From: Escherichia phage vB_EcoM-101112UKE3-1 | Length of the DNA stretch: 64,000 nt | Sequence record: MZ234013.1 | Strand: one strand, 5' to 3' | In this document: one piece after another, positions 36,180 to 36,740 of the stretch | How the letters are laid out: each line of letters begins with the position of its first letter | Numbering within the stretch: position 1 is the stretch's first letter | The notes under the pieces: model-generated | The model's input: the letters and a program-made list of their open reading frames with translations, nothing else | What the model was told of the DNA's origin: nothing | Database searches by the model: none | Position numbers and translations under genes: made by a program

Positions 36180-36740
36180 ATGATTAATAAAATTGTGCAT
36201 GAAATGGCTTTAAACGGAGATTCATATAAAATATCTGCCGTAGTTGAAAATTTCATACTTAATAAAGTAAAAGAATATTTCACTGATTGTTCAGTTAGTT
36301 ATCAAGAAAAAATGGTTTTAACCGATGATACTGAAAAATCAAATAATTTGTTTTGTTCTAATTTTATAACTAAGAAGCGTACTAGAAGATTTGATATTGT
36401 TATTTCTCGCAACGGTAAAAAGCATATAATTGAAATTAAACACCAAGTTGGTGGAGGTACAGCTATTGATTCGGTTGGAATATATTTAGAAGATAAAGAG
36501 AAATTAAAAGAATACACAAAAACTGAAAACCCTGTGTCATTGATGATATTAGATTTTTTGCCATGCGGATATTATCCACGTAATAAATGGACAAAAAGAG
36601 AATCATTTACTGATAATCCAACCATCCAAGCAAGGTTTAATGAATATGCTAAATCACAAAACGTGTTAGTATTACTATCAAATACATATGATGAAGAATT
36701 ATATAATTCGTTTTTTGCTGCAATAAATGAGAGAATATAA
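36180..36740 (+). CDS. PD-(D/E)xK nuclease-like protein (186 aa) coupled to dam
   Basis: D72-x12-E85-I-K87 in [20 protein letters not shown]; stop TAA overlaps dam ATG (TAATG). Confidence 0.5.

Follow-up and report, generated by a model that had tools for sequence, protein, structure and literature searches.

Directly upstream of the dam methyltransferase gene of Escherichia phage vB_EcoM-101112UKE3-1 (sequence record MZ234013.1) lies an open reading frame (ORF) of 186 amino acids (aa), which very probably encodes a nuclease that is functionally tied to Dam. The stretch that was analysed, referred to here as the window, is 64,000 nt long and represents a segment of a Tequatrovirus (T4-like) genome. 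The Dam enzymes of T2 and T4 are the textbook orphan phage methyltransferases and have been studied biochemically for decades, and to our knowledge the benefit of Dam to a T-even phage has never been clear. The computational evidence supports a changed view of T-even Dam, in which the enzyme usually has a restriction-nuclease-like partner. On balance, we lean towards reading the two genes as a compact Type II-like restriction-modification (R-M) cassette, in which the nuclease would cut unmethylated GATC, probably in the DNA of rival phages, and Dam would protect against it.

The cassette comprises the following features:

36092..37518, plus strand: two-gene cassette, approximate extent (~1.43 kb), from alignment to the intergenic regions between genes 61 and 56 of RB68 and T6
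36126..36154, plus strand: promoter-like site TTTACT-17-TATTAT, TG-extended, 5' of the ORF (consensus scan, 9 of 12 positions)
36168..36172, plus strand: Shine-Dalgarno sequence GAGGA, 7 nt 5' of the ATG of the ORF (read from the sequence)
36180..36740, plus strand: 186-aa PD-(D/E)XK restriction-endonuclease-like gene with an ATG start; putative catalytic residues E23, D72, E85 and K87
36738..36742, plus strand: TAATG stop/start overlap of the ORF and dam, a translational coupling signal (from the sequence)
36740..37519, plus strand: dam, encoding a 259-aa N6-adenine methyltransferase of the Dam family (D12 class)

Linkage to the dam gene

The linkage to dam is the strongest evidence for the function of the ORF. 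The stop codon TAA (36738–36740) and the ATG of dam (36740–36742) have one A in common (...ATATAATGCTAGG). An earlier note on this DNA had described the 186-aa ORF and this overlap, and both are read directly from the sequence. The same note had given the ORF an early-type promoter of its own. Of this claim, a consensus match stands, and a promoter at 36126–36154 is annotated in several GenBank records, but such sites are statistically no different from the AT-rich background, with 10 seen in the region against 11.8 expected from shuffles. The product of dam matches PF02086 (E = 6.5e-51) and TIGR00571 (E = 1.4e-69), and the gene has a nucleotide identity of 96–100% to the dam genes of T2 and T4 (96–97% to T4 dam). 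These T2 and T4 orthologues methylate GATC.

The ORF was found directly 5' of a D12/Dam methylase gene, on the same strand and overlapping or abutting it (0 to 35 nt), in eight of eight divergent contexts. Genomic context was retrieved for the homologues used, which all lie on phage-like sequences or short metagenome contigs. The junctions with the methylase are:

this window: 1-nt overlap
Dhakavirus MX01: 1-nt overlap
contig L096: 1-nt overlap
contigs L007–L010: abutting
contig L095: 4-nt overlap, methylase confirmed
Jiaodavirus KPV15 (a Klebsiella phage): 7-nt overlap
distant homologue P0013: 20-nt overlap
distant homologue P0011: 35-nt overlap

In KPV15, the interval between the primase gene and gene 56 is empty and the pair is located between the denB region and ndd. 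This different locus indicates that the two genes move as a unit. The ~1.43-kb cassette is an insertion relative to RB68 and T6, which lack dam, and its G+C content is 0.26–0.31 as compared to 0.33–0.40 in the flanks. Clean direct repeats bounding the cassette were considered and set aside, as the 10-bp AT-rich strings at its ends are imperfect and have no copy in RB68; no claim is made on them.

Separate genes for a putative nuclease and a methyltransferase, adjacent and co-inherited, as in Type II R-M systems, were thus found here. Contexts were examined individually for a sample of the 163 ORF-positive records, and among the records with examined context there was no case of the ORF without dam, while dam survives without the ORF. 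Such an asymmetry is what one would expect of a toxic nuclease that cannot do without its methylase. The R-M-like module proposed in the earlier note is therefore supported computationally, by the linkage in eight contexts and by the affinity to DpnII described below.

Two side observations concern the more distant relatives. On the metagenome contig L006, a 726-aa protein with a weak GHKL/HATPase_c match (E = 0.0035) is encoded at 1664–3844, 3' of the nuclease-methylase pair of P0013, which places this distant cassette in a different genomic background. In the metagenome proteins P0008 and P0010, the C-terminal part of the ORF product is attached to foreign N-termini (epimerase-like, PF01370, and asparagine-synthetase-like, respectively); these are probably chimeras of assembly or gene calling rather than real fusions.

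The ORF is a real gene under purifying selection. Its length is kept in relatives at 29–64% identity, and the ratio of nonsynonymous to synonymous substitution rates (dN/dS) is 0.17–0.19 against homologues with 63–64% identity, for which dS is near saturation. The amino-acid identity of the ORF product is lower than that of Dam in both comparisons made (64% vs 76% with MX01; 43% vs 63% with KPV15). The ORF therefore diverges faster than dam, which is the usual pattern of restriction enzymes and their methylases. The protein is of the full-length founder type of PHROG 8706 (E = 5.7e-116), a family without an assigned function. A word-indexed search of 5.8 billion proteins together with an exhaustive profile search yielded about ten relatives, full-length or fragments, with 29–99% identity. 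The exhaustive profile search, which covered 1.84 billion representatives, returned 11 proteins: a small phage and metagenome family, fragments and two repetitive giants.

Predicted fold, putative active site and affinity to DpnII

An AlphaFold2 model was made from an alignment of seven sequences, with a predicted local distance difference test score (pLDDT) of 80.7 and a predicted template modelling score (pTM) of 0.80. The model consists of a single 186-aa domain with the order helix, strands, helix, strand, helix, strand, helix, and it contains the alpha-beta-beta-beta-alpha-beta core of the PD-(D/E)XK nuclease superfamily. The structures that match the model are mostly PD-(D/E)XK nucleases (Can2, VC1899, McrC, DrdV, BstEII, Bax1, BsoBI, PfoI, PspGI, Bse634I, NgoMIV, AgeI, BsaWI, Cfr10I, FokI and EcoRI). 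The best of them are mostly sequence-specific Type II restriction endonucleases, and MunI, with ~200 aa, is also among the matches. Foldseek searches against PDB and against viral models gave a matching picture. The ORF product is therefore predicted to have a restriction-enzyme fold.

An alignment of nine sequences, which span 29–64% identity and of which the most distant have 29% and 32%, revealed the invariant residues E23, Q42, S54, R69, D72, H82, E85, K87, H88 and Q89, as well as G93-T-A-I-D-S98, P118, S120 and D125. The model places E23 in the first long helix (residues 15–33), and D72 and E85-x-K87 on the strands of the central hairpin (67–77 and 80–88). If their clustering in space is assumed, E23, D72 and E85-x-K87 would form the canonical metal-site arrangement of a PD-(D/E)XK nuclease. 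The peptide D72-x12-E85-x-K87, from which the earlier note had proposed a PD-(D/E)xK core, is present with its numbering confirmed by residue count, and the core itself is borne out by the fold matches and by the invariance of E23, D72, E85 and K87 in the nine homologues.

Restriction enzymes are the only families that surface by sequence. The Pfam family DpnII (PF04556) matches the protein of the window with E = 0.0045 and 16.8 bits, over profile positions 152–235 of 278; it matches four of nine members of the ORF family, with a best E-value of 8.3e-5, and RE_BanI comes second. An independent model, REase_II of PADLOC (PDLC03548), hits the segment covered by DpnII (E = 9e-5, best 5.3e-6). A search of NCBIfam returned noise.

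For a closer comparison, DpnII-family alignments were built from P0018 and P0089 (which bears the NCBI name DpnII) and from 80 diverse bacterial loci; P0018, at 99% identity to the DpnII sequence, is taken to be DpnII. In 59 of the 80 bacterial loci, a methylase resembling the phage Dam is encoded within 1.5 kb of the nuclease gene, almost always upstream of it (M then R). When the phage family was aligned to DpnII by hhalign, the narrow alignment gave a probability of 27%, and the diverse one 45% (score 35.5). This score exceeded those of all 100 column shuffles (maximum 20.5), of all 100 block shuffles (mean 19.7, standard deviation 3.0, maximum 29.9) and of the reversed template (14.8). The alignment pairs E23, D72 and E85 with the invariant DpnII residues E152, D201 and E214, K87 with N216, and the glycine-rich GGGTAID with SGSGSKLN. 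A permissive setting adds a hydrophobic strand ending in Asp (D125 vs D252) and a G-x-W-x-K...E-[ST]-F stretch. The alignments span DpnII residues ~123–226 and can be extended to ~270. An AlphaFold2 model of DpnII (pLDDT 72) has, over residues ~148–288, the same order of secondary-structure elements as the phage model, this order being the sole basis on which the two models were compared. Taken together, the sequence comparisons point to a probable remote kinship of the phage protein with the DpnII family, confined to the catalytic half at the C-terminus of these enzymes; the protein falls outside the Pfam family.

Kinship with EcoRI was also considered, as EAKHQ...GNAIER of EcoRI and EIKHQ...GTAIDS of the phage protein look alike by eye. 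Neither BLASTP nor hhalign found a match to the verified EcoRI sequence, and the resemblance was rejected as evidence at the sequence level.

Distribution, decay and genomic setting

About 503 records of Tequatrovirus-type phages match the primase flank. This dam gene is present in ~183 of them and is contiguous with the ORF in 148. By sampling, it was estimated that ~134 records have an intact C-terminus and ~12 carry the allele of T2. Sampling also gave ~33 records with dam alone, including those of T4, T4T, Pinarejo, FN, JEP6 and PD112; dam-only records keep a 3' remnant of the ORF. In T6, RB68 and most other Tequatroviruses, neither gene is found and the order is primase, dam.1, 56. The absence of dam from T6 agrees with the classical finding that N6-methyladenine occurs in T2 and T4 DNA and not in T6 DNA.

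Three short sequences mark the sites of decay:

36105..36112, plus strand: left copy of the 8-bp direct repeat ATCACAAA, at the left end of the T4-type deletion
36653..36660, plus strand: right copy of ATCACAAA; T4-type sequence is retained from here to dam
36711..36716, plus strand: T6 homopolymer, from which T2 and T4-type phages have lost 1 nt, causing a frameshift (alignment and T2 annotation)

When T4 (NC_000866) and Elenatom, a T4-like phage, were aligned to the window, a 548-bp deletion between the two copies of ATCACAAA became apparent. Lost with it are the promoter-like site and ~158 codons from the start of the ORF; what stays in front of dam is an 87-nt 3' remnant with the last ~27 codons. 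All listed records with dam alone begin to match at position 36653 of the window (query position 474), and this common junction suggests a single ancestral deletion event. The deletion implies that the orphan state of T4 Dam is secondary. T2, in several records, retains the whole ORF with one T lost, so that the last seven residues are replaced, the protein has 181 aa and the overlap with dam is abolished; tblastn coverage in T2 and SV76 is 1–179. When the synteny of the interval between gene 61 and dam is followed through the T-evens, as the earlier note had proposed, the ORF is thus frameshifted in T2, reduced to a remnant in T4, and absent from T6 and RB68. The homopolymer has five T in T2, T4 and Elenatom, and six in the remnant-only phages vb_GEC_SH_GT, Manna and F1. 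Its length varies between isolates, and slippage at 36711–36716 therefore appears to be recurrent.

A further observation concerns the other side of gene 56. In T4, the homing endonuclease gene segF (contig L011, NC_000866 15606–16280) lies between 56 and soc and adjoins the decayed cassette, while the window has a short ORF after 56 in its place. This position of segF marks the interval from 61 to soc as a hot spot for the gain and loss of nuclease genes among T-evens.

The region 35800–37600 is 100% identical to the Escherichia phages vB_EcoM-fFiEco06, JB75 and G2540, Yersinia phage PYps14T and others. The local order is gene 61, a minus-strand ORF of 66 aa (named 'dam.1' in the T6 record), the 186-aa ORF, dam and gene 56. 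The neighbouring features are:

34855–35883: gene 61, primase
35880–36080, minus strand: 66-aa hydrophobic, membrane-like ORF ('dam.1'), convergent with gene 61 and overlapping its stop by 4 nt
36046–36065, plus strand: terminator-like hairpin ATGGCATT-AACA-AGTGCCAT followed by a T-run, just 3' of gene 61
next after dam: gene 56, dCTPase

The 66-aa ORF belongs to PHROG 2024, which has no assigned function. Its conservation among T-evens does not depend on the presence of the dam cassette; in T4 NC_000866 it is not annotated. The hairpin is located in the 5' end of this antisense ORF and precedes the promoter-like site that belongs to the nuclease-like gene.

Proposed role, alternatives and known systems

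In the mechanism that we infer, from catalytic activity, GATC specificity and blockage by N6-methyladenine (m6A) to early expression, dimerisation and target, the product of the ORF would be a restriction endonuclease of the PD-(D/E)XK type, small, dependent on Mg2+ and probably homodimeric. Dam would be made from the same message, and the two genes would constitute a mobile GATC-specific cassette. A single transcript would carry both genes early in infection, and the stop/start overlap would couple the synthesis of Dam to that of the nuclease. Dam would N6-methylate the phage's own GATC sites, with packaged DNA already methylated on arrival, and the nuclease would cut the GATC sites that carry no methyl group. 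Since the DNA of a Dam+ enterobacterial host is already methylated, the host is no plausible target and the DNA of competitors is a likely one. The nuclease may therefore be directed at phages that co-infect or superinfect the cell with unmethylated DNA, among them the T-evens without dam, which are the majority, and the cassette would serve both as an inter-phage weapon and as a selfish element. The orphan Dam of T4 would then be a decay product, in which the nuclease gene was deleted and the protective methylase kept.

Several results weigh against this R-M reading. Chains in PDB gave no sequence match at E ≤ 10, with either the single protein or the family profile, so that of the PDB and Pfam comparisons suggested in the earlier note, one was negative and the other gave the sub-threshold match to PF04556, whose 16.8 bits fall below the gathering threshold of 23. 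The hhalign probability for DpnII is 27–45%, the ORF product has no counterpart of the N-terminal ~135 residues of DpnII, and E-x-K stands in the place of the E-x-N of DpnII. With R before M, the genes are arranged in the reverse order of bacterial DpnII loci. T2, a classic laboratory phage, carries the frameshifted allele, and the searchable literature reports no GATC nuclease from T2. The DNA of a Dam+ host is no substrate, and the proposed target is accordingly a conjecture. Finally, GATC is the most under-represented 4-mer palindrome in the window (73 observed, 208 expected, ratio 0.35), and its depletion was rejected as evidence for the cassette because it is as strong in RB68, which lacks dam. 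The observed/expected ratio is 0.29 in RB68 (1–50000) and 0.14 in KPV15 (1–50000); the depletion in RB68 indicates that it is subfamily-wide and independent of the cassette, and it fits a long-standing selection against GATC across the subfamily.

A bolder form of the R-M reading, which we regard as a doubtful possibility, is that the nuclease cuts DNA with hydroxymethylcytosine (hmC) or glucosyl-hmC at unmethylated GATC, and that the cassette is a gene-drive-like weapon that destroys the genomes of co-infecting dam-less T-evens. DNA with hmC or glucosyl-hmC resists ordinary restriction enzymes, and almost no Type II enzyme is known to cut it. This resistance, together with the strict dependence of the nuclease on Dam, suggests that the enzyme may be able to act on DNA of the T-even type. 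Such a weapon would explain why the nuclease never occurs without Dam although hmC DNA resists ordinary restriction, why T4 kept its Dam as a 'vaccine' after the nuclease was lost, and why no other palindrome is as depleted as GATC across the Tevenvirinae.

It is unlikely that the ORF product serves in repair, recombination or replication, as a MutH- or Vsr-like nickase or a structure-specific nuclease, rather than as a restriction enzyme. The fold is common to Vsr, Bax1, Mus81, RecU and Hjc-type enzymes, which stand lower in the match lists, and the gene is located among replication genes (61, dam, 56). However, Type II enzymes with sequence specificity predominate among the best structural matches, and Pfam at E ≤ 1 gave no match to MutH, Vsr or a resolvase. 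The gene is also accessory, being absent from most Tequatroviruses, and moves with dam, which would be unusual for a core repair function.

The same searches bear on another reading, to which we give little credence, in which the nuclease depends on methylation and cuts Gm6ATC in cytosine DNA, namely the host chromosome and other Dam-methylated phages. The phage's own sites would be shielded by glucosyl-hmC, and the co-expressed Dam would complete the methylation of the target. Host DNA is fully Dam-methylated and T-even phages degrade it, the tight coupling to Dam fits 'mark then cut' as well as classical R-M, and the fold alone is silent on methyl sensitivity. Against this, the nearest family, DpnII, cuts unmethylated GATC, and the protein is a single 186-aa domain in which Pfam at E ≤ 1 found no DpnI, winged-helix, SRA or other methyl-reader domain; nor was a signature of a MutH/Sau3AI nickase or of the DpnI type, with its winged-helix methyl reader, found in it. 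T4 lost the nuclease and kept the methylase, as expected if the methylase protects against the nuclease.

It is very unlikely that the protein is an inactive member of the fold, which would bind DNA or Dam and regulate dam expression or Dam specificity. The protein is indeed very small for a restriction enzyme and has no DpnII N-terminal domain, and T2 tolerates the C-terminal frameshift. However, the four putative metal-site or catalytic residues are invariant down to 29% identity, MunI is an active restriction endonuclease of similar size, and T4 Dam works without the ORF protein. That the frame is a chance or degenerating one without a functional protein, as the name 'hypothetical protein' in most records might suggest, is for practical purposes refuted by the conservation of length and motifs at 29–64% identity and the dN/dS of 0.17–0.19, to which the strong ribosome-binding site, the confident fold prediction and the ~134 records with an intact frame can be added.

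Nearly all listed records name the product a 'hypothetical protein'. The record of vB_EcoM_Shinka (MZ502379) names it a 'putative restriction endonuclease', with the note 'putative DpnII restriction endonuclease'. A search of the full-text literature found no paper that describes or tests the gene, although an early mention in the older papers on T2 dam is possible. Should the partner prove to be a restriction endonuclease, T-even Dam would serve to protect the phage against its own nuclease, and the Dam of T4 would protect it against relatives that still carry the nuclease. Virulent hmC phages would be added to the few lytic viruses known to carry both halves of a Type II R-M system. The 186-aa protein would then count as a GATC enzyme of minimal size, with kinship to the DpnII core. 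Such an enzyme may work on modified DNA, which makes it of practical interest. Nature provides the genotypes for comparison: T2 with a frameshifted nuclease and Dam, T4 with a deleted nuclease and Dam, T6 with neither, and ~134 intact pairs.

Among known systems, DpnII/MboI comes closest. These enzymes cut unmethylated GATC, a specificity presumed to be common to both systems, and the methylase partner, DpnM, is of the same Dam/D12 family. The order of motifs is also alike: a helix Glu, an RFD-x-VI strand, an I-E-x-[KN] strand, a Gly-rich segment with the pattern G-x-G-[ST]-x-h-[ND]-[ES], and a hydrophobic strand with Asp at its end. The phage system differs in the length of the nuclease (186 aa vs ~288 aa, in a family with a full-length architecture of ~280 aa) and in its arrangement, R then M with a stop/start overlap as opposed to M then (A) then R in bacteria. 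It has no second, DpnA-type methylase, and it resides in a virulent phage with hmC DNA. The resemblance to MunI/EcoRI-type enzymes (alpha-class PD-(D/E)XK) is structural, with no sequence match by BLASTP, hhalign or HMMER, the G-N-A-x-E-R recognition motif included, and the motif match seen by eye requires a 21-residue gap; those enzymes recognize sites with an AATT core and pair with different methylases.

A biological parallel is CviAI of a Chlorella virus, which cuts /GATC, is blocked by m6A and has M.CviAI as its partner. As would be the case here, both members of a Type II R-M pair are carried by a lytic virus whose own DNA is methylated at the target site. The enzymes of chloroviruses are believed to break down host DNA that is unmethylated; the enterobacterial host of the present phage is already Dam-methylated, so that the target must differ. 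In contrast to the textbook orphan Dam of T4, this dam is not solitary in ~80% of the phage records that carry it.

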